A stretch of DNA of 13,323 nucleotides from a virus. Its lineage: Duplodnaviria; Heunggongvirae; Uroviricota; Caudoviricetes. The position numbers and the translations under genes are program-made. This document shows, piece by piece, positions 1,422 to 12,917 of this stretch; position 1 is the stretch's first letter, and each line of letters begins with the position of its first letter. The stretch spans positions 1 to 13,323 of the IMG/VR virus record IMGVR_UViG_2565956709_000005; one strand, 5' to 3'. Under the pieces are notes generated by a model. That model ran no database searches. It was given only the letters and a program-made list of their open reading frames with translations, and was not told where the DNA came from.

Positions 1422-3893
1422 TTAAAAATCAGCCTGATTCGGGATCAGTTTTTGCCAGATAACTGAAACGTATTTTGCCTGGTAACGGGCGTCATCAAGT
1501 GCATTATGGCGCTCACCTTCGAATGGAATAGCCGTTCTGGCATCGAAGTCTATGGCTTTCCCCAGCTCAACGATTGTGCGTACATCGCGATCGTTGTAGT
1601 AACGCCATGGGCAGGGGATCCCCTGCCGTTCGTATGAACGGCGCAAAATCGTGTTGTCGAAGTTGGCTCCATTTCCCCAGACCTGAACAAAAAATTCGCC
1701 GGAGTTTTCGTCGATAAATTCCCGCAATTGCAGCAGTGCATCATCTAACGGGATTTCATCGGTCAGAATGGCAGATTGCGCCTCCCGTGATTGCTTAAGC
1801 CACCATTTAATGGTGCCACGATCAATGACTCCGCCAGCAGTATCCATATCGATGGTCTTACTAAATTCCGGCCCCATATCTCCGGTTTGCGGATCGAAAA
1901 ATATTGCACCTATTGAGATAAGCGGGGCATCGGGATTTTTTCCCATGGTTTCAAGGTTGATCATCATGTGGTGCCACATTCTGCTGGTGGATGTGATAAC
2001 GTGATGACCGTTCATCGCAATTAAGGGATCTGCCGTCTCGCCAGTTTCACTATCGCTGGCGTGATCCTGAGCGCTACCAGCATTCTCCTTGTGTGGATGT
2101 TCAGCGCCTTCCATTTCCTTCGGATCATTTTCCTGAACTTCAACCTGATTCTCTTCATCGAATGTTTCCTGGTATGTTGCGTCGCCCATTACCGCGCCAC
2201 AATCAGGGCAGTTGCCACCACCGCTTTGACCGCAGGCGGTGCAGACTTTTTCCGGTTCCTGTTGCGCTACTGGCTCAGGTTGTTTCGTTTCTGGCTCGTT
2301 TTGTAACGCATTTGGGCTGTTTTGTTCCGCTTTCTGGCCGTTCTGTTCCGTTTCTTGTTGGTTCTGATTCACTGAATCGCGGGTTTCAATCCCCTTCACC
2401 CATTTCGGATCATTCGGGTCGCTAATCCCTGCAACAAATTCACCACGTGATACAGCAAGCAACTTATTGGCGTCAGGCTGGCTGATATTGGCTGCCTGCA
2501 TAATTTTGTTTACTTCGTCAGCGGTAACTTTTACCGGCTCTGGTTGTGCGATCGTGTCAGATGCACCAGTATTTTGTTGTGAACCTGAGTATGTACTGTT
2601 TTTGCGGGCGAAATATTCTTCTTTCGTGATTTCAGTAGCCCCGGCAGCCAGCGCCTTATCCAGACCAGAAAGTTTGTTTGCGCGACCGTATTTTTCGCCA
2701 TCCTTGTCGGTGAAGAGGAAGTAGAACGGCCCTTCACGCTCTACAGATGGTTCGACTTCCACTTTGCATTCGGTTTTTTCGTTGTCCGGAATTGCCGTTT
2801 CCACTGCATCAGTTTCTGGTACTGGCGACGAGAGAGTATCAGTTGCGCTCTGATTTCTTCCTTCATCTTCAAACACGCCCTTTGTAGTCAGGTATTCAGT
2901 AATGTATTTGTTCAGTGCCACAGGGTCTTTGTGAATGTCGATCGGACGTTCACGGACAAGGCCAAAAATAGTCTGGCGGTCGTAGCGAAGGGCATCAGGC
3001 TGTTTGCGCATTGATGCCGAGATACGCTTCCAGTCTTCGCGGTCGTTGTCGATAACTTCATTTTTTGCCCAGCGATGGATGCTGCCGTCAATGTTTCCGG
3101 CATCCACATCACCAGGCCAGAGAGCGTAGGCCAGTTCGTCATCCAGTGTTTTCCATGTCTGCTTGTATTCGCGATGAATGGCAGCAATGACCGGGCTGAT
3201 TTTTCCTGTTGAATTTTCAGTGTGCTGTTGATTGGTTCTGGCGCGGGCGAGATCAACAACAGACGTGTATTTTCCGGTTTCCTTGCGTTCACCTTCGCGA
3301 CGTTTTTTCCAGATGCGCATCTCTGCCTGAATTTCGGGCCATTTGGCACCAGGCTTACATTTATGCTTAACCCACCCGATGGCATGCAGCTTAAGCTCCG
3401 GATACATGGCGTTAACTTCTGGCATTTTCATCAACGCTTCAACGATATGTCCGTCGAATGTTGCCATGTCTTCCTGCAACAATTCCTGTGCGCTAATAAC
3501 CATATCAACGGTGATGTTTTCACATGTGTCGAACTTAACCATGACAGCGTTCTGTACTTCAGGGGACAGCTTGTCAAAATTGACGTTCATCGGATCGGAT
3601 TCTGGTTCGACCGGAATAAAGGAAGCGGATTCCTCATCCCAGCGGTTTTCCTGCATATATTCAGCATCCCAGGAATCGAGGGCAGGGCGGGGTATACCGG
3701 GTTTATCCTCGCAGACAAGAAATTTATAAGCGCAGTCCTGAGCAGCCGGATAATGTTCCAGGAATTGCCAGTGAAATTTTGCGCGGGCGCGACGTTCATC
3801 ACCGGCTTCAATGGCAGTGGCTACAGCGACGGCACCTTCTTCCTTTATTGCCTGTTCGTCCGGAATGGCGGCGCAAATAAAGACTTTACTCAT
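1422..3893 (-). CDS. Large multidomain exonuclease, RecE / exodeoxyribonuclease VIII-like by position, 823 aa, with C-terminal DnaQ-like (DEDDh-type) 3'-5' exonuclease domain
   Basis: Long ORF with ATG at 3893 and a GAGG about 12 nt upstream. C-terminal ~180 aa carries DnaQ-family-like motifs (...VWGNGANFDNTIL... and ...HNALDDARYQ...). Middle has a Q/E/P-rich low-complexity linker and a CxxC-x9-CxxC zinc-ribbon-like motif (CTACGQSGGGNCPDCG). Segment LLAVSRGEFVAGISDPNDPKWVKG matches my unverified recollection of E. coli RecE. Sits where lambdoid phages carry exo/recE, directly upstream of xis-int. Confidence 0.6.
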   Translation of the reverse strand: MSKVFICAAIPDEQAIKEEGAVAVATAIEAGDERRARAKFHWQFLEHYPAAQDCAYKFLVCEDKPGIPRPALDSWDAEYMQENRWDEESASFIPVEPESDPMNVNFDKLSPEVQNAVMVKFDTCENITVDMVISAQELLQEDMATFDGHIVEALMKMPEVNAMYPELKLHAIGWVKHKCKPGAKWPEIQAEMRIWKKRREGERKETGKYTSVVDLARARTNQQHTENSTGKISPVIAAIHREYKQTWKTLDDELAYALWPGDVDAGNIDGSIHRWAKNEVIDNDREDWKRISASMRKQPDALRYDRQTIFGLVRERPIDIHKDPVALNKYITEYLTTKGVFEDEGRNQSATDTLSSPVPETDAVETAIPDNEKTECKVEVEPSVEREGPFYFLFTDKDGEKYGRANKLSGLDKALAAGATEITKEEYFARKNSTYSGSQQNTGASDTIAQPEPVKVTADEVNKIMQAANISQPDANKLLAVSRGEFVAGISDPNDPKWVKGIETRDSVNQNQQETEQNGQKAEQNSPNALQNEPETKQPEPVAQQEPEKVCTACGQSGGGNCPDCGAVMGDATYQETFDEENQVEVQENDPKEMEGAEHPHKENAGSAQDHASDSETGETADPLIAMNGHHVITSTSRMWHHMMINLETMGKNPDAPLISIGAIFFDPQTGDMGPEFSKTIDMDTAGGVIDRGTIKWWLKQSREAQSAILTDEIPLDDALLQLREFIDENSGEFFVQVWGNGANFDNTILRRSYERQGIPCPWRYYNDRDVRTIVELGKAIDFDARTAIPFEGERHNALDDARYQAKYVSVIWQKLIPNQADF

Positions 3894-6283: not shown

Positions 6284-6353
6284 GTTAGGCAATCCCTACT
6301 CTCGATGTATTAGGCATAGCCTATTGACAATTGCATTAGGCTAAGCCTAATAT
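6284..6353 (+). promoter_or_regulatory. Predicted rightward early promoter P_R with operator sites (O_R) between the repressor and cro-like genes
   Basis: -35 TTGACA (6324-6329), 18-bp spacer, -10 TAATAT (6348-6353). Perfect 17-bp palindrome ATTAGGCTAAGCCTAAT at 6335-6351, near-palindrome ATTAGGCATAGCCTATT at 6309-6325, and a degenerate third site at 6284-6300. Site centres are 25-26 bp apart. Confidence 0.55.
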
Positions 6354-6380
6354 TGTTGCGTGTTTTTTGGAGTTCATTCG

Positions 6381-6704
6381 ATGAAAAAAGATAACTATTC
6401 ATTCAAACGAGCTTGTGCTGTTGTCGGTGGGCAATCAGCAATGGCTAGGCTTTTAGGTGTATCTCCTCCAAGCGTAAATCAATGGATCAAAGGTGTACGT
6501 CAGTTGCCTGCTGAGAGATGTCCTGCGATTGAACGAGCAACAAAAGGTGGTGTCCTGTGTGAAGAACTTCGTCCTGATGTTGATTGGACATACTTACGAC
6601 GCTCGTCATGTTATTCGCAGAATATGTCGATGAAGCAACCAAATGACGAAAACGATCATACCCGAAGCATCAAGAGGCAAATGATTCATGAAAATCAAAC
6701 ATGA
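6381..6704 (+). CDS. ydaS: Cro-like HTH regulator, YdaS-like, 107 aa from ATG 6381
   Basis: GGAG lies 9 nt upstream of ATG 6381 (track starts at GTG 6360). HTH segment GGQSAMARLLGVSPPSVNQWIKG. Start matches my recollection of Rac YdaS (MKK.NYSFK.ACAVVGGQSAMARLLGV...), unverified. Confidence 0.7.
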   Translation: MKKDNYSFKRACAVVGGQSAMARLLGVSPPSVNQWIKGVRQLPAERCPAIERATKGGVLCEELRPDVDWTYLRRSSCYSQNMSMKQPNDENDHTRSIKRQMIHENQT

Positions 6705-9251: not shown

Positions 9252-9420
9252 TTTTGGTTCAACTAAATACAACGTCAGTTTTGAAGAATGGCATGAACTG
9301 TTAATGGACTATGCAGAGTTACGTGGTGGCAGTGCTGCTGATGCTGAAGCATGGCGTGATGATTATGAAGCAGGAAAAACTCCGGTCGAAGCATATTGTG
9401 ATGAGTGGGGCGATGAATGA
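9244..9420 (+). CDS. Acidic small protein, 58 aa (16 Asp/Glu against 4 Lys/Arg); absent from the ORF track
   Basis: Hand-translated: MADFGSTKYNVSFEEWHELLMDYAELRGGSAADAEAWRDDYEAGKTPVEAYCDEWGDE. Start overlaps the upstream stop (ATGGCTGA) and its stop overlaps the next ATG (ATGA). Confidence 0.45.
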   Translation: MADFGSTKYNVSFEEWHELLMDYAELRGGSAADAEAWRDDYEAGKTPVEAYCDEWGDE

Positions 9421-9733
9421 GCGAGGTTAATTATCAGGAAGGGCATGAAACGGCGGGGCAAGCAAAAACAGTGGCATGGCGATATCGCTACGTGAAAAAA
9501 AAGGCGTTACGGACTTTCAGGGGAAGTAGTGGTCTGGTGACTGGAAATATGTACCGAAAAAAGAGGATTGTAACGACAGGCCGAACTATGAAATTCAGGC
9601 CTTATTCACTGCCCCGCCAGTCCCGGTTACATCAGAAGAACTGGTTAAAGCTGTGCACTTTTATGAACAACTAAAACGCGAAAATCCACCAGCATCCGGA
9701 AACCTGATTACAGATTCCCAGATAAGGCAATGA
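9417..9733 (+). pseudogene. Disrupted or recoded gene: translationally coupled start at 9417, A8 run with A_AAA_AAG heptamer, protein-like coding in the -1 frame downstream, in-frame TAG at 9527-9529
   Basis: Frame 0 from 9417 is open to 9674 but its C-terminal half is compositionally odd (K/R-rich). The -1 frame from 9530 to 9733 reads protein-like (WSGDWKYVPKKEDCNDRPNYEIQALFTAPPVPVTSEELVKAVHFYEQLKRENPP...) but has no start codon and follows a TAG. Slippery heptamer at 9497-9503. Confidence 0.3.
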
Positions 9734-10498: not shown

Positions 10499-10565
10499 GA
10501 GACCAGGCGGGGGAGAATCCCTCGCCACCTCTGATGTGTCAGGCATCCTCAACGCACCCGCACTT

Positions 10566-10592
10566 AACCCGCTTCGGCGGGTTTTGTTTTTT
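10566..10592 (+). terminator. Rho-independent terminator of the hok mRNA
   Basis: AACCCGC-TTCG-GCGGGTT stem-loop followed by TTTTGTTTTTT. Confidence 0.8.
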
Positions 10593-10664
10593 CCTGGCAT
10601 TCTGGTTTACAATTCGCACGTCAGCCTGAACACCTGACACCTGCTGCGCCAGCAGAGAAAACAG

Positions 10665-10937
10665 ATGGCGCACAAAACCAAATTTCACAATTCTGATACC
10701 GACCTTGCCATCCGGCATGAGCGGCGTTCACACGCATTTAAAACCGACTGGTACCAACACCCACCATGTACTGAAGAACAGGCCGAATGGCTGATTCATA
10801 ACTACCGCAGACGTGGATATGAGTTTAGGAAAGCCCTCACCCTCGATTATCGTCACTGGATAATCTACGTCAGACTCCCTTATTCCGAACGCCCACCGCG
10901 TCCGTCCCGCACATTCCAGCAACGGATCTGGAGGTAA
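10665..10937 (+). CDS. Hypothetical protein, 90 aa, translationally coupled to the downstream HNH-motif protein
   Basis: ORF in track. Its 3' end contains the GGAGG that serves the next gene's GTG start. The antisense ORF here is S/T/R/P-rich and less plausible. Confidence 0.5.
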   Translation: MAHKTKFHNSDTDLAIRHERRSHAFKTDWYQHPPCTEEQAEWLIHNYRRRGYEFRKALTLDYRHWIIYVRLPYSERPPRPSRTFQQRIWR

Positions 10938-10938
10938 C

Positions 10939-11997
10939 GTGCGGGTATTACTTCGATCTGTTCCGGTACCGGAACTTGGGCTGGTGGTCCTTAAGCCTGG
11001 TCGTGAATCCATGCAGGTATTCCGCAGCGGTCGTGTACTGGTGGAGCCGGAACCGAAAAGCATGCGCGGTCTGCCGTCCGGAGTCGTTCCTGCCGTTCGC
11101 CAGCCATTGGCGGAGGATAAATCACTACTGCCATTTTTCAGCGATGAGCGGGTGATTCGTGCTGCTGGCGGTGCTGGTGCGCTGTCTGACTGGCTGTTAC
11201 GCCACGTTAAATCCTGCCAGTGGCCTCATGGTGACTATCATCACAGTGAAATCGTCATACATCGTTACGGTACCGGCGCGATGGTGTTGTGCTGGCACTG
11301 CGACAACCAGCTGCGTGACCAGACCTCCGAATCACTCGGGCAACTTGCTCATCAAAACCTGTCAGCATGGATGATTGACGTCATACGCCATGCAGTGAAT
11401 GGCACGCAGGAGCGGGAATTATCGCTGGCTGAATTGTGCTGCTGGGCTTCTGTAAATGATGTAGTGGATGCCATGACCGAAAATATGGCGCGTCGAATCC
11501 TGAAGCTTCCGGGTGAAAAAATCCGCTCAGTATACCGCGAGAGCGACATCGTACCGGGAGAGCAGACCGCCATCAGCATACTGAAGCAGCGCACAAAAAA
11601 TATTGCGCCGTTGCCTCACGCCCACCAGCAACAGAATCCACCACAGGAAAAGACGGTGGTCAGCATTGCCGTTGATCCGGAGTCACCGGCTCAGTATCTC
11701 CAGCGCCAGAAACCACAACGGGAAGAGATGCCTGTATACACGCGCTGGGTAAAAACGCAGAAATGCATGACGTGTGGCAATCAGGCAGATGATCCGCATC
11801 ACATCATTGGTCATGGACTGGGAGGGATGGGAACAAAGGCTGATGATTTGTTTGTTATTCCGCTGTGCCGTAAATGCCATAGCGAACTACACGCCGGGGT
11901 AAAAGATTTTGAAGAAAAACACGGCAGCCAGCTGTTGTTGCTGATTCGTTTTTTAATGCACGCGAGAAATTCGGGTGTCCTGAAGTGGAAAGCATGA
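10939..11997 (+). CDS. Nin-region protein with C-terminal HNH-type zinc-finger nuclease motif (DUF968-like), 352 aa
   Basis: C-terminus CMTCGNQADDPHHIIGHGLGGMG...LCRKCHSELH has a CxxC...HH...CxxCH...H layout. GGAGG lies 6 nt upstream of GTG 10939. Sits directly upstream of rusA. DUF968 label is from memory. Confidence 0.65.
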   Translation: MRVLLRSVPVPELGLVVLKPGRESMQVFRSGRVLVEPEPKSMRGLPSGVVPAVRQPLAEDKSLLPFFSDERVIRAAGGAGALSDWLLRHVKSCQWPHGDYHHSEIVIHRYGTGAMVLCWHCDNQLRDQTSESLGQLAHQNLSAWMIDVIRHAVNGTQERELSLAELCCWASVNDVVDAMTENMARRILKLPGEKIRSVYRESDIVPGEQTAISILKQRTKNIAPLPHAHQQQNPPQEKTVVSIAVDPESPAQYLQRQKPQREEMPVYTRWVKTQKCMTCGNQADDPHHIIGHGLGGMGTKADDLFVIPLCRKCHSELHAGVKDFEEKHGSQLLLLIRFLMHARNSGVLKWKA

Positions 11998-12363
11998 ATG
12001 ACTGAACGCATAGAATTTGTTTTGCCTTACCCGCCAACGGTGAACACTTACTGGCGACGTCGTGGCAGCACATATTTTGTATCAAAAGCCGGTGAGCGTT
12101 ATCGCCGTGATGTGGCGCTTATTGTTCGCCAGCAGCGGCTGAAATTAAACCTGTCCGGAAGGCTGGCGATAAAGATTATTGCAGAGCCACCGGATAAACG
12201 TCGTCGTGACCTGGACAATATCCTGAAAGCACCACTGGATGCGCTGACGCATGCCGGACTTCTCATAGACGACGAGCAGTTTGATGAAATCAATATTGTG
12301 CGCGGTCAGCGCGTTCCTGGGGGGCGGCTGGGCGTGAAGATTTACAAAATTGAGAGTGAGTGA
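11998..12363 (+). CDS. rusA: RusA Holliday-junction resolvase, 121 aa
   Basis: Motifs ...LPYPPTVNTYWRR... and ...PDKRRRDLDNILKAPLDAL... match the RusA family as I know it. Start overlaps the upstream stop (TGAATG). Confidence 0.88.
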   Translation: MTERIEFVLPYPPTVNTYWRRRGSTYFVSKAGERYRRDVALIVRQQRLKLNLSGRLAIKIIAEPPDKRRRDLDNILKAPLDALTHAGLLIDDEQFDEINIVRGQRVPGGRLGVKIYKIESE

Positions 12364-12917
12364 TCGTAAATATGATATATCCGGAAATTACAGGCAAAAG
12401 CGGCGAGCATTTACGTCTAAAAACGCTGGAAGCCGTCTGGATCCAGGGGAAATTACGGATGTGGGGGCGTTGGTCGTACATAGGTGGTGGCAAACCAGGA
12501 AATATGTTCAATCAGTTGCTGGCATCCAAAACACTTACAAAAACTGCGATCAATGAAGCTCTGCGCAGAATAAAAAAATCAGGGATTGATAAAACTGAGC
12601 TGGAAGCGTTTTTGCGTGAGATGATCAACAGCAAGCAAAAGAGCGGGCTGGCTTATTGTACTGATGCCGAGGCGTTATGTATCGATCGGGTAATTAGTAA
12701 AGTGTTGGCAGAGCATCCGGGATTGATTTGTATCCTCCGACAAAGATATGAAGGGCTGGGAATGAGCAAGCTGAAAATGGCAGAACAGTTAAAAAAGAAT
12801 CACCCTGACTGGAGCCTGAAAACTTGTAGAAATCGCATTGATGTTTGGTTGGCGATGGCTGAAACCATGCTTTTCCTTCCAATGTGCGTGGCACTTCGGT
12901 GCTTTTCTGATAACTGA
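12360..12917 (+). CDS. Putative late-gene antiterminator (Q-like) by position, 185 aa; start may be ATG 12372 rather than GTG 12360
   Basis: ORF in track. Follows rusA as Q does in lambdoid phages and is followed by a promoter-like sequence. No Q-specific motif recognised, so the function is positional inference. Confidence 0.4.
   Translation: MIVNMIYPEITGKSGEHLRLKTLEAVWIQGKLRMWGRWSYIGGGKPGNMFNQLLASKTLTKTAINEALRRIKKSGIDKTELEAFLREMINSKQKSGLAYCTDAEALCIDRVISKVLAEHPGLICILRQRYEGLGMSKLKMAEQLKKNHPDWSLKTCRNRIDVWLAMAETMLFLPMCVALRCFSDN

Follow-up and report, generated by a model that had tools for sequence, protein, structure and literature searches.

DUF968 and DUF1364 (YbcO) have been placed together in group 7 of the His-Me finger nucleases (Jablonska et al. 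2017), and their RusA and Q neighbors have already been noted (PMC5714182). In E. coli K-12, the DUF968 family is represented by YdfU of the Qin prophage (b1560; DUF968/PHROG 96). YbcO (DLP12/phage 82; PF07102, PDB 3G27) and lambda NinG/Rap are also His-Me nucleases and occupy the same slot, before rusA or Q. Gp16 of phage PhiNM1 is a toxic, RecA-interacting nickase that is stimulated by RecA and required in phage DNA replication (PMC12817073), and Ref of phage P1 is a RecA-dependent HNH nuclease (PMC4330346, PMC3973344). P1 also carries pdcB, a distant ydfU homolog that is non-essential and whose HNH motif is degenerate.

Herein, we analyzed a window of 13,323 nt, the whole stretch of the IMG/VR record IMGVR_UViG_2565956709_000005 under study, which represents the early/nin region of an E. 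coli prophage of the lambdoid type, integrated at ompW. Annotated E. coli prophages match it at 99.9% DNA identity; in these, the integrase/excisionase, racR-type immunity genes and hokD lie upstream, and Q, tRNAs, lysis genes and terminase genes lie downstream. The PPompW phages have the same block, annotated there as ydfU/rusA, and a DNA match to the region was found in 4618 of the 5426 E. coli genomes. The features of the block are as follows.

10566..10592, + strand: intrinsic terminator after hokD, stem-loop AACCCGCTTCGGCGGGTT followed by a T-run
10665..10937, + strand: small gene of 90 aa, with ATG at 10665, 90 codons and TAA at 10935-10937
10906..10945, + strand: possible RNA hairpin (MFE fold) pairing the Shine-Dalgarno sequence and GTG of ydfU with the 3' end of the small ORF
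10930..10934, + strand: GGAGG Shine-Dalgarno sequence of ydfU, read from the sequence, in the last two sense codons of the small gene (TGG AGG, Trp-Arg)
10939..11997, + strand: ydfU-family gene of 352 aa, with a GTG start and TGA at 11995-11997
10939..11343, + strand: YdfU N-terminal domain (aa 1-135), matching phrog_11007 (E 4e-65, residues 2-134), with no Pfam coverage
11215..11316, + strand: predicted zinc site and beta-beta-alpha element (C93, H101, C118, C121, then D122, N123 and R126)
11416..11970, + strand: DUF968 region (aa 160-344), comprising the helical middle and, after it, the HNH module
11764..11892, + strand: predicted His-Me/HNH core (C276-x2-C279; DDPHH, with H288 as the predicted general base; C310-x2-C313-H314-x3-H318)
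11998..12363, + strand: rusA (Holliday-junction resolvase; Pfam RusA 4.9e-16, in agreement with RefSeq)
12360..12917, + strand: DUF1133/Q-like late-gene regulator (DUF1133 2e-98, Phage_antitermQ 1e-7), which closes the block

Within the nin (early) region, the locus lies at the end far from the promoter, and its four co-directional, abutting genes encode a phrog_1212 protein, YdfU, RusA and the Q-like regulator. The initial annotation had grouped ydfU with rusA in a DNA-processing cluster, and this agrees with the RusA match and with the rusA ATG at 11998, which abuts the ydfU stop. The rusA stop is in turn overlapped by the Q-like gene, the start of which is set at 12372 in the RefSeq annotation. 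Upstream, the hokD terminator is identical in K-12 Qin, where the rem insertion lies directly 3' of it. A sequence scan found no promoter-like site between this terminator and position 10665, and the block has no convincing promoter of its own; transcription probably reaches it from the early promoter, passing the hok terminator by antitermination. The block of small gene, ydfU, rusA and Q is an ordinary module of E. coli lambdoid prophages and is already annotated (DUF968; hypothetical), the 99.9%-identical ydfU copy being named 'DUF968 domain-containing protein' in RefSeq. On the nuclease side there is thus little new: the YdfU/DUF968 family already figures among the catalogued His-Me fingers, descriptions of its RusA/Q neighborhood exist, and thousands of E. 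coli genomes have both genes annotated.

The protein encoded here is 76% identical to K-12 Qin YdfU over 348 aa, and the two share the three-part architecture, the GTG start, the coupled upstream ORF and the place at the end of the nin region by Q. They differ in that rem is inserted upstream in Qin, whereas here rusA lies between ydfU and a Q-like gene of the DUF1133 type, and divergence between them is greatest in the C-terminal HNH part.

The match of YdfU to phrog_96 extends over the full length (E 2e-161). Sequence profiles and AF2 modeling point to three parts: the N-terminal domain, which carries a predicted Cys/His zinc site, then a helical middle, and finally a C-terminal zinc-stabilized His-Me (HNH) module. 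The AF2 model is a moderate one (mean pLDDT 66.7) built on a shallow alignment, since two of the three large homology searches gave almost only matches at least 89% identical to YdfU. A C-terminal HNH motif had been recognized in the initial annotation, where DUF968 was guessed as the family, and the HMM check confirmed both: DUF968 (PF06147) matched residues 160-344 through positions 1-169 of its 171-position profile, with 211 bits (cut-off 27.8; E 1.5e-62), and HNHc_6 matched residues 267-328 at 29.7 bits (cut-off 26.6), covering profile positions 119-184 only. The HNH catalytic and zinc residues are invariant across the YdfU family. At the level of prediction, the motif and the HNHc_6 match place YdfU in the His-Me finger (HNH) superfamily, which is defined by a beta-beta-alpha-metal core where the catalytic His ends strand 1 and the helix supplies a His, Asn or Asp metal ligand; a Cys4-type zinc site is a further mark of this subgroup.

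The N-terminal domain, described earlier as being of unknown function, is indeed uncovered by Pfam over aa 1-135 and finds its match in phrog_11007; its homologs extend to P1/P7 PdcB and to Vibrio phages (27-36% identity). In the AF2 model, residues 1-55 are of low confidence and residues 60-130 have a pLDDT of 72-89, with a hairpin (105-118) leading into a helix (119-128). The columns of the zinc site are invariant across eight homologs down to 27% identity, with H101 being Cys in P7/VPBES and C121 being His in some, and this pattern suggests that C93, H101, C118 and C121 bind zinc. A search of PDB sequences with the N-domain gave no match, and the His pair 101-102 is not conserved. We also considered that the N-domain is a duplicated, degenerate HNH module, as its CWHCDNxLR motif and modeled hairpin-helix might suggest; this was rejected, the hhalign comparison of the N and C modules giving a probability of 0.3. 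The middle part is modeled as all-helical (helices 131-154, 163-172, 181-188 and 211-219; residues 194-207 and 228-262 form disordered linkers). The description of 'DUF968' by Curtis et al. would make this part Orf/NinB-like, but no NinB Pfam match was found, the model is all-helical, and the statement fits proteins that are now in HNHc_6. YdfU accordingly lies outside the class of Orf/NinB-fused HNH proteins, which match HNHc_6 over their full length (Curtis et al. 2014).

HNHc_6 matches Gp16 of PhiNM1 over the full length (389 bits), and Gp16 also scores above the DUF968 threshold. The HNH modules of Gp16 and YdfU are homologous, sharing the pattern CxxC...HH...CxxH/C-H...H and 37% identity over 59 aa (E 3e-8), and Gp16 is an early phage gene near ssb and rusA-type genes, as ydfU here is early and beside rusA. 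However, Gp16 is a protein of 223 aa with a NinB/Orf-like N-domain that YdfU does not have, and the similarity is limited to approximately 60 residues of the HNH core. The predicted fold of YdfU is closest to P1 Ref (PDB 3PLW), a likeness at fold level only. Ref matches PF16786 (RecA_dep_nuc) at 2e-51, whereas the Pfam scan of YdfU returned only DUF968 and HNHc_6 and the pairwise comparison gave E 0.005; by profile, YdfU is not a member of the RecA-dependent nuclease family (PF16786), and the disordered, basic N-terminus of Ref is unlike the YdfU N-domain. YbcO aligns weakly with the YdfU HNH core (pairwise E 0.54), but it is a bare HNH domain of 96 aa and YdfU has approximately 260 extra N-terminal residues. 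The profiles of NinG (PF05766) and YbcO (PF07102) gave no YdfU match at E <= 0.01.

By homology, YdfU is most likely a metal-dependent DNA nickase or endonuclease, and its substrates would most likely be host or phage recombination or replication intermediates early in lytic growth. The models for such an activity are PhiNM1 Gp16, a RecA-stimulated nickase of the same HNH family, and P1 Ref, which cuts RecA D-loops; RusA would then resolve the junctions resulting from the action of YdfU. With Gp16 as a characterized relative of the DUF968/HNHc_6 module, there is now a concrete candidate activity for YdfU, the product of a y-gene that is present in some form in most E. coli genomes.

The expectation that the 90-aa ORF upstream is a conserved coding frame held up well. 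Across 75 distinct DNA versions, from loci whose selection by similarity to the small protein favors intact copies, the frame has a dN/dS of 0.20 and zero internal stops, and every other frame has stops and/or a dN/dS above 1. The 90-aa ORF is therefore a real gene under purifying selection. Its product is basic (pI 10.2) and is a long Escherichia form of phrog_1212 (E 5.3e-36), residues 25-90 covering profile positions 1-66 of 66. These residues form a conserved core of approximately 66 aa, and residues 1-24 are a weakly constrained extension that is predicted to be disordered; by part of the gene, codons 1-27 have a dN/dS of 0.54 and codons 28-92 one of 0.12. The AF2 model shows a beta-alpha-beta-beta-alpha core with a pLDDT of approximately 86, and residues 1-21 are below 50. 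An independent HMM search of 1.84 billion representatives gave 78 family clusters, mostly of 66 aa, whereas the YdfU-linked Escherichia form has the extra N-terminal extension of approximately 25 residues. The family is basic (median pI 9.6), and its core is kept at 25-45% protein identity across many genera with differing downstream genes. The small protein had no match in Pfam, NCBIfam or PADLOC. K-12 Qin carries an intact 92-aa homolog (NC_000913.3, 1644306-1644584, minus strand), which has no entry in the MG1655 reference annotation.

Other identities for the small protein were considered and rejected. It is not Rem, although the wording 'toxin to Rem' in some phage records points that way: BLAST gave no alignment, and K-12 rem is a separate insertion upstream of the 92-aa homolog. 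An identity with NinE or NinF was set aside as well, as 39 members had no Pfam family and hhalign against DLP12 NinE gave a probability of 0.05; the small gene also co-occurs with NinF and NinX in single phages.

The 3' end of the small ORF reads TGG AGG TAA, followed by the single base C10938 and then the ydfU GTG, with 4 nt between the Shine-Dalgarno sequence and the GTG. The placement of GGAGG within the last codons of the 90-aa ORF, and of the GTG 1 nt past its stop, had been given exactly in the initial annotation (10930-10934; 10939). The 1-nt gap from stop to start and the junction TGGAGGTAAnGTG were found in 208/208 related loci carrying both genes, a set gathered by similarity to the small protein and thus favoring intact copies. 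Such uniformity goes beyond chance. Nucleotide diversity is 0.046 at the junction versus 0.10-0.28 elsewhere, and no stretch of the pair is more conserved than this joint; synonymous diversity falls to 0.19 in the last 17 codons of the small ORF versus approximately 0.44. The short gap, the Shine-Dalgarno sequence inside the upstream ORF and the conservation of the arrangement are the geometry of a translationally coupled pair. Ribosomes finishing the small gene would re-initiate on ydfU, tying the output of YdfU to the small gene and possibly melting a hairpin that hides the Shine-Dalgarno sequence and the GTG. This hairpin (10906-10945) is suggestive only: its local MFE is -18.1 kcal/mol with a z of only -1.8 against shuffles, and -1.1 for a 111-nt fold, neither of which amounts to statistical support. 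Among its variants, no compensatory ones were found; most are G-U compatible and a few break pairs, so covariation does not support it either.

The joint is shared beyond ydfU. The TGG-[AG]GG-stop design also precedes the starts of RusA, YbcO and NinG in other phages, and members of phrog_1212 have in common the C-terminus LP..PR..QQR.W and the TGG-RGG-stop junction. The named members include Gifsy-1 STM2620.1n, mEp237_051, phiES15_017 and N15 Orf QD1. A phrog_1212 gene lies directly 5' of RusA in 58 loci, which are mutually close relatives and represent few independent events. In other phages the same small gene precedes the His-Me nucleases, being upstream of NinG in Gifsy-1, GF-2 and approximately five further loci, and before YbcO (then RusA) in mEp237 and phiES15; in still others, NinX, NinF or a (Dcm) methylase lies between the small gene and NinG. 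In N15 the small family precedes a gene annotated as a DNA polymerase exonuclease subunit, and in PY54 the gene downstream is unrelated and encodes 175 aa. Small genes before YdfU-like genes of approximately 50% identity were found in Klebsiella phage ST846 and the IMG/VR contig L281. Taken over phages of Escherichia, Salmonella, Klebsiella, Cronobacter, Edwardsiella, Hafnia and Erwinia and over N15, the small family stands 5' of recombination nucleases, and it often follows a DUF1367 gene, which is annotated as a NinB/Orf recombination mediator in the record of Erwinia phage vB_EhrS_59.

YdfU-like genes also occur without the small gene. No small-family member was found within 2.5 kb of the YdfU-like genes in 80 SfII-type loci, where a KilA-N gene lies upstream instead, nor beside those of phiNP, Vibrio phage Pm34 and P1/P7 (PdcB). 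A scan of genome contigs with YdfU peptide patterns returned only Escherichia/Shigella records and one mis-binned MAG contig, with two badly frameshifted copies; the patterns are very specific and say little on the distribution of YdfU, for which tblastn against phage records was more useful. Defense-system libraries (PADLOC) gave no match. Conservation of the gene pair, which the initial annotation had proposed as a check, was therefore seen only in part: the junction is kept in all 208 Escherichia loci, and each family is widespread without the other, rather than the two co-occurring as an obligatory nuclease/subunit pair would. From these sequence comparisons, the pairing of the small gene with YdfU is a lineage-specific mosaic joint and not an obligate two-subunit system.

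The account that we favor, with a fair but by no means firm degree of confidence, is that of a nin-region block with a real, coupled small gene, in which YdfU is an HNH nickase or endonuclease and the small protein is a conserved nin-region protein and not a YdfU-specific subunit. The initial annotation had suggested the latter, a specificity or inhibitory subunit. In such a model the inhibitor would be antitoxin-like, and the coupling would hold the subunit at a fixed ratio to YdfU. The invariant coupling in the Escherichia loci and the pairing in ST846 and L281 are consistent with this, as is the toxicity of the related nuclease Gp16 on expression (PMC12817073); the strong Rho terminator 5' of Qin ydfU has been placed in a group whose members are said to suppress toxic genes of prophages (PMC9160355), and YdfU residues 1-55 are conserved yet modeled with low confidence, as if folding on a partner. 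However, the commonest coupling partner of the small family is RusA, with NinG and YbcO as further ones, all of unrelated or different architecture. In addition, YdfU alleles that share only 78% identity stand next to small proteins that are the same (e.g. at loci L003 and L004). Because the small family precedes other nucleases and YdfU-like genes occur without the small gene, a dedicated subunit is not supported, and we consider it unlikely. At the other extreme, the ORF might be a mere translated leader that brings ribosomes to ydfU and makes a functionless protein, as its Shine-Dalgarno-bearing 3' end with extra nucleotide-level conservation and its weakly constrained first 27 codons could suggest; the low dN/dS of the core codons, the maintenance of the core across genera with different downstream genes and the compact AF2 fold make this scarcely credible. 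The small protein could instead be a general partner of the 'junction-nuclease slot' (RusA, Rap, YbcO or YdfU), binding, for example, branched DNA, RecA or SSB. Its consistent place 5' of recombination nucleases, the basic character of the family and its frequent position after the DUF1367 gene, inside the recombination module, favor such a role, but in lambdoid phages a conserved position is often a matter of common gene order and not of function, NinX, NinF or the Dcm methylase intervene before the nuclease in several phages, the PY54 neighbor is unrelated, and a single protein fitting unrelated folds is not parsimonious. We regard this role as doubtful, while giving it some weight. If the protein were a shared accessory or regulatory factor of these unrelated nucleases (RusA, Rap/NinG, YbcO and YdfU), recognizing, for example, branched DNA, RecA or SSB and delivering or restraining the nuclease, then the small gene would be kept, coupled, directly before whichever nuclease fills the slot; this proposal is rather doubtful. 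As a side possibility within it, the conserved but poorly modeled residues 1-55 of YdfU might be where the small protein docks in the Escherichia lineage.

Two further readings concern YdfU itself. A part in late-gene regulation with Q or Lpa, in place of a recombination nuclease, is suggested by the YdfU-like genes immediately 5' of the late activator in Qin, SfII, phiNP, Pm34 and P1/P7, by the annotation of the phiNP gene as 'antitermination protein Q_2' and by 607-aa YdfU-Q fusion proteins in the database. The end of the nin region always adjoins Q, so that this position is expected; moreover, rusA separates ydfU from the Q-like gene here, the HNH catalytic and zinc residues are invariant, and a 1-nt frameshift between overlapping frames can account for the fusions, all of which makes the reading very unlikely. 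YdfU might also be a packaging HNH protein that aids terminase in cos/pac cleavage, like HK97 gp74, since HNH proteins often assist terminases (background cited in PMC12817073) and P1 pdcB lies two genes upstream of pacA. Yet ydfU lies in the early nin region with RusA and Q as its neighbors, and is separated from terminase by approximately 10 kb and the whole lysis cassette, and pdcB is non-essential whereas pacA and pacB are essential; we judge a packaging role highly improbable.

In the favored account, the small protein is, as far as gene order and sequence indicate, a conserved basic nin-region protein placed 5' of whichever branch or junction nuclease the phage carries, and our best guess is that it is a small nucleic-acid-binding accessory of the recombination module. 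The coupled small gene tracks the recombination-nuclease slot across Enterobacterales phages. The TGG-RGG-stop gene end is best explained, from the junctions compared here, as serving at the same time as a portable ribosome-binding site where mosaic genes meet, and its use as a Shine-Dalgarno sequence offers a clear example of a portable gene joint.

The gene block was read from the ORF table and the raw sequence, and the ORF, Shine-Dalgarno (SD) and start positions of the initial annotation were matched base for base.

Features of the gene block in the window
10566-10592, + strand: strong intrinsic terminator 3' of hokD (sequence)
10665-10937, + strand: 90-codon ORF (small gene), ATG at 10665, ending TGG AGG TAA, stop at 10935-10937 (ORF table, raw sequence)
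10930-10934, + strand: GGAGG, the SD (raw sequence)
10939-11997, + strand: 352-codon ORF (ydfU), GTG at 10939 preceded by a single C, stop at 11995-11997 (ORF table, sequence)
From 11998, + strand: rusA, ATG right after the ydfU stop (sequence; Pfam RusA, as initially claimed)
3' of rusA, + strand: DUF1133/Q-like gene, start overlapping the rusA stop (ORF table)

The 1.9-kb block shared 99.9% DNA identity with chromosomal segments of several E. coli strains, and 4618 of the 5426 complete E. coli genomes contained related DNA. In E. coli EC24, the 25 kb around the block is a lambdoid prophage adjoining ompW, which begins with integrase, excisionase, exonuclease, dicB, ydfC and a racR-type repressor with its divergent partner, continues with replication genes, hokD, a 'hypothetical protein' (the 90-aa gene), a 'DUF968 domain-containing protein', RusA and DUF1133, and proceeds to tRNAs, lysis genes and terminase. 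The same block, labelled ydfU/rusA, is found in PPompW and Stx phages. Given this gene order, the pair belongs to the early (nin-like) region and occupies its promoter-distal end. No promoter-like site was found in a scan from the hokD terminator to the small gene, and we infer that the block is expressed via antiterminated early transcription. The homologous gene just 5' of hokD (window 9417-9674) is marked in RefSeq as a pseudogene, frameshifted and with an internal stop.

The 352-aa protein matched Pfam DUF968 (E 1.5e-62, residues 160-344) and HNHc_6 (residues 267-328; 29.7 bits, cut-off 26.6), bearing out the HNH motif and DUF968 assignment suggested earlier. It matched PHROG 96 end to end, and its alignment with YdfU from the Qin prophage of K-12 gave 76% identity over 348 residues. 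DUF968 and DUF1364/YbcO (PDB 3G27) have been placed in group 7 of the His-Me finger superfamily, in a survey that names YdfU and gives RusA and Q as typical neighbours (PMC5714182). Both genes are likewise annotated in RefSeq, and the initial annotation correctly describes a prophage block that was already known. What is added here is a link from YdfU to a characterised RecA-dependent nickase, the delineation of the small-gene family with its association with several different nuclease genes, and an intact, conserved small-gene copy that the MG1655 annotation omits.

The architecture of YdfU was drawn from an alignment of eight sequences, reaching down to P1/P7 PdcB and Vibrio phages, and from an AlphaFold model (mean pLDDT 66.7, shallow alignment).

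Parts of YdfU
Residues 1-135: part (i), N-domain, PHROG 11007, no Pfam family
Middle: part (ii), helical, with disordered linkers (AlphaFold model)
C-terminal: part (iii), HNH core C276xxC279, DDPH-H288, C310xxC313-H314xxxH318 (motif)

The HNH core residues were invariant across the family. In the N-domain, C93, Q94, C118, W119, H120, D122, N123 and R126 were invariant, and position 101 (His/Cys) and position 121 (Cys/His) varied. The model places a hairpin at 105-118, followed by a helix at 119-128 that opens with C118-x2-C121, and together these features are read as a probable zinc-binding beta-beta-alpha element. No profile similarity between the N-domain and the C-terminal HNH module was detectable, nor was any similarity of the N-domain to PDB sequences found; residues 1-55 are conserved, yet poorly modelled. 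A 194-aa protein of Vibrio phage VPBES (L297 1971-2555) comprises the YdfU N-domain and first DUF968 helices, and is labelled 'HNH endonuclease' despite having no HNH module; the N-domain can therefore stand alone.

The coding status of the small gene was assessed in 208 related loci collected from IMG/VR, plus K-12. Across 75 distinct DNA versions, the annotated 90-aa frame was free of internal stops, and its pairwise dN/dS had a median of 0.20. Stops occurred in each of the five remaining frames; four had dN/dS above 1, and the fifth, the wobble-sharing antisense frame, had 0.30 with 6.4 stops per sequence. Selection was concentrated in codons 28-92 (0.12), against 0.54 and in-frame indels in codons 1-27. 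The 90-aa ORF is thus a real gene under purifying selection, and it is extremely improbable that it is a pure leader ORF. No antisense frame across the small gene was coding-like; a 59-aa 'hypothetical protein' annotated in RefSeq (WP_001112736.1; window 10539-10718, - strand) overlaps the hok terminator as well as the opening 54 nt of the small gene.

The joint with ydfU was conserved as well. Every locus with both genes kept the SD inside the upstream ORF, the 1-nt gap and the junction TGGAGGTAAnGTG. Over the final 17 codons of the small gene synonymous diversity was down to 0.19, from about 0.44 before, and among the window and 142 aligned homologues the junction was the least variable 60 nt of the pair (pi 0.046). 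The most variable part was the HNH-coding 3' end of ydfU (pi 0.18-0.28), a sign of mosaic exchange in which recombination seems to replace one HNH allele by another and to leave the joint linked to the N-domain. A predicted hairpin at 10906-10945 (-18 kcal/mol) would bury the SD and GTG; it was not significant against shuffles and no compensatory changes were seen, so hiding of the ydfU start is listed as a possibility.

PHROG 1212 matched residues 25-90 of the small protein (E 5e-36), an HMM search of 1.84 billion representatives returned 78 clusters, mostly of 66 aa, and tblastn against phage genomes found relatives of about 66 aa; the 90-aa protein is therefore a long form of a ~66-aa family. 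A word-indexed search had returned only Escherichia and Shigella members. The family is basic (median pI 9.6), with the consensus MKxxWFxH..T..EA.EL...Y..RG....K.L..D...W.V.A.LPE....PR.....QQR.W, and its terminal Trp-Arg/Gly codons and stop (TGG-RGG-TRA) provide an SD for any downstream gene. AlphaFold gave a beta-alpha-beta-beta-alpha core (pLDDT ~86) with a disordered N-terminal extension; fold searches with the small protein returned generic ferredoxin-like matches and its own N15 homologue, nothing else. No family match was found in Pfam, NCBIfam or PADLOC, and NinE and NinF were ruled out by family/profile comparison.

K-12 MG1655 carries an intact 92-aa homologue (L002, the Qin locus, 6307-6585 = NC_000913.3 1644306-1644584, - strand) that stops 1 nt before the ydfU GTG. 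Despite this, NC_000913.3 has no feature between rem (b1561) and ydfU (b1560), and at least 1000 other contigs carry the identical protein under the name 'hypothetical' or 'Prophage protein'. The small protein is not Rem, to which it has no similarity. Compared with the window, K-12 Qin has some 370 bp of inserted DNA that carries rem (window 10592/10593 versus L002 6586-7020); it is bounded exactly by the hokD terminator on one side and the small gene on the other, which makes rem look like a moron. In some phage records the small gene bears the label 'toxin to Rem' or 'mobile element protein', with no sequence basis.

We then considered whether the small protein is a partner of YdfU, given that it had been proposed as a specificity or inhibitory subunit. 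Downstream genes were surveyed in 73 loci with short-form members, with representatives checked by Pfam. RusA lay directly 3' in 58, which are closely related to one another; NinG/Rap did so in Gifsy-1, about five further loci and one truncated copy. In mEp237 and phiES15 the small gene preceded YbcO and then RusA, and in two loci a YdfU-like gene. The next gene carries the annotation 'DNA polymerase exonuclease subunit' in N15, and in PY54 it encodes an unrelated protein of 175 aa. Another six phage records were examined.

Small-gene context in six further phage records
Klebsiella ST846: small gene, DUF968 gene
Edwardsiella GF-2: small gene, NinG-like gene
Hafnia Pocitis76: small gene, 59-aa gene, NinG
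Enterobacter MII_001: small gene, hypothetical, NinX, NinF, hypothetical, NinG
Erwinia phage 59: small gene, Dcm methylase, NinF, NinG
Klebsiella phage 5 LV-2017: small-protein match not annotated as a gene, 221-aa unclassified hypothetical, late antitermination gene

Conversely, none of 80 SfII-type YdfU loci had a small-family member within 2.5 kb, a KilA-N gene standing in its place 7 nt 5' of ydfU, and the YdfU-like genes of phiNP, Vibrio Pm34 and P1/P7 also lacked one. Pairing is therefore obligatory for neither family; a single Escherichia lineage has it fixed, and it recurs in Klebsiella. Identical small proteins were joined to YdfU alleles only 78% identical. With each family occurring without the other, the subunit proposal was left unsupported, and a dedicated YdfU subunit is unlikely; a general partner of whichever nuclease occupies the slot is somewhat less so, while still doubtful. 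The evidence supports a conserved nin-region gene holding a position just 5' of the recombination-nuclease slot, which may reflect either a function shared with the nucleases or mere conserved gene order.

The closest characterised relative of the YdfU HNH module by sequence was Gp16 from the Staphylococcus phage PhiNM1 (HNH core, 59 residues aligned at 37% identity, E 3e-8), and the module is homologous to Gp16 and YbcO. Gp16 is an early protein that is toxic, interacts with RecA, nicks DNA and is required for replication of the phage DNA (PMC12817073). It is a full-length HNHc_6 protein also above the DUF968 threshold. An earlier description of DUF968 proteins as bearing an Orf-like domain (PMC4118853) is therefore inapplicable to the YdfU architecture. 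Ref is in a different Pfam family and its pairwise similarity to YdfU is weak, and its match was therefore taken as resemblance, not membership. P1 pdcB, a distant ydfU homologue, is non-essential. Its P7 equivalent, Upf95.7 (L296, the P7 locus, 2757-3050), keeps the zinc-type residues of the N-domain and has a degenerate HNH (DDPHH to GAG-AH; the His after the second CxxC to Gln), and the P1/P7 homologue may be a nuclease-dead relative.

Beyond the established gene identities, conserved coupling geometry, purifying selection on the small gene and intact HNH and zinc motifs, we propose that the block would be read early by antitermination and that ribosomes finishing at the TAA would re-initiate at the ydfU GTG. 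YdfU would perform metal-dependent nicking or cleavage of recombination or replication intermediates, possibly with RecA, its N-domain serving in DNA or partner recognition, and RusA would then resolve the junctions that arise. The small basic protein could be a nucleic-acid-binding accessory of this module or functionally independent. That YdfU is instead a packaging helper is most improbable, and a role in late regulation is very unlikely.

YdfU-like genes lie directly 5' of the late activator (Q; Lpa in P1/P7) in such diverse elements as Qin, SfII, phiNP, Vibrio Pm34 and P7, whereas in the window rusA separates ydfU from the Q-like gene. The phiNP gene is labelled 'antitermination protein Q_2'. 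Proteins P0320-P0322 (607 aa, ~11 contigs) fuse YdfU (DUF968, HNHc_6) to the Q antiterminator domain PF03589; in K-12 the Q gene and the 3' end of ydfU overlap in different frames, which means that a shift of 1 nt would yield such a fusion, and these may be either real genes or assembly errors. Second YdfU-type copies in E. coli ECMA0423 and ECGI0523 (L218, L219), have many frameshifts throughout hok, ydfU, Q and the small gene, and represent either prophages in decay or assemblies full of errors. A Veillonella parvula MAG bin (L216, JAGZPX010000007.1) contains this Escherichia prophage segment with a YdfU 76% identical to that of the window, and its Veillonella assignment is almost certainly a binning error.
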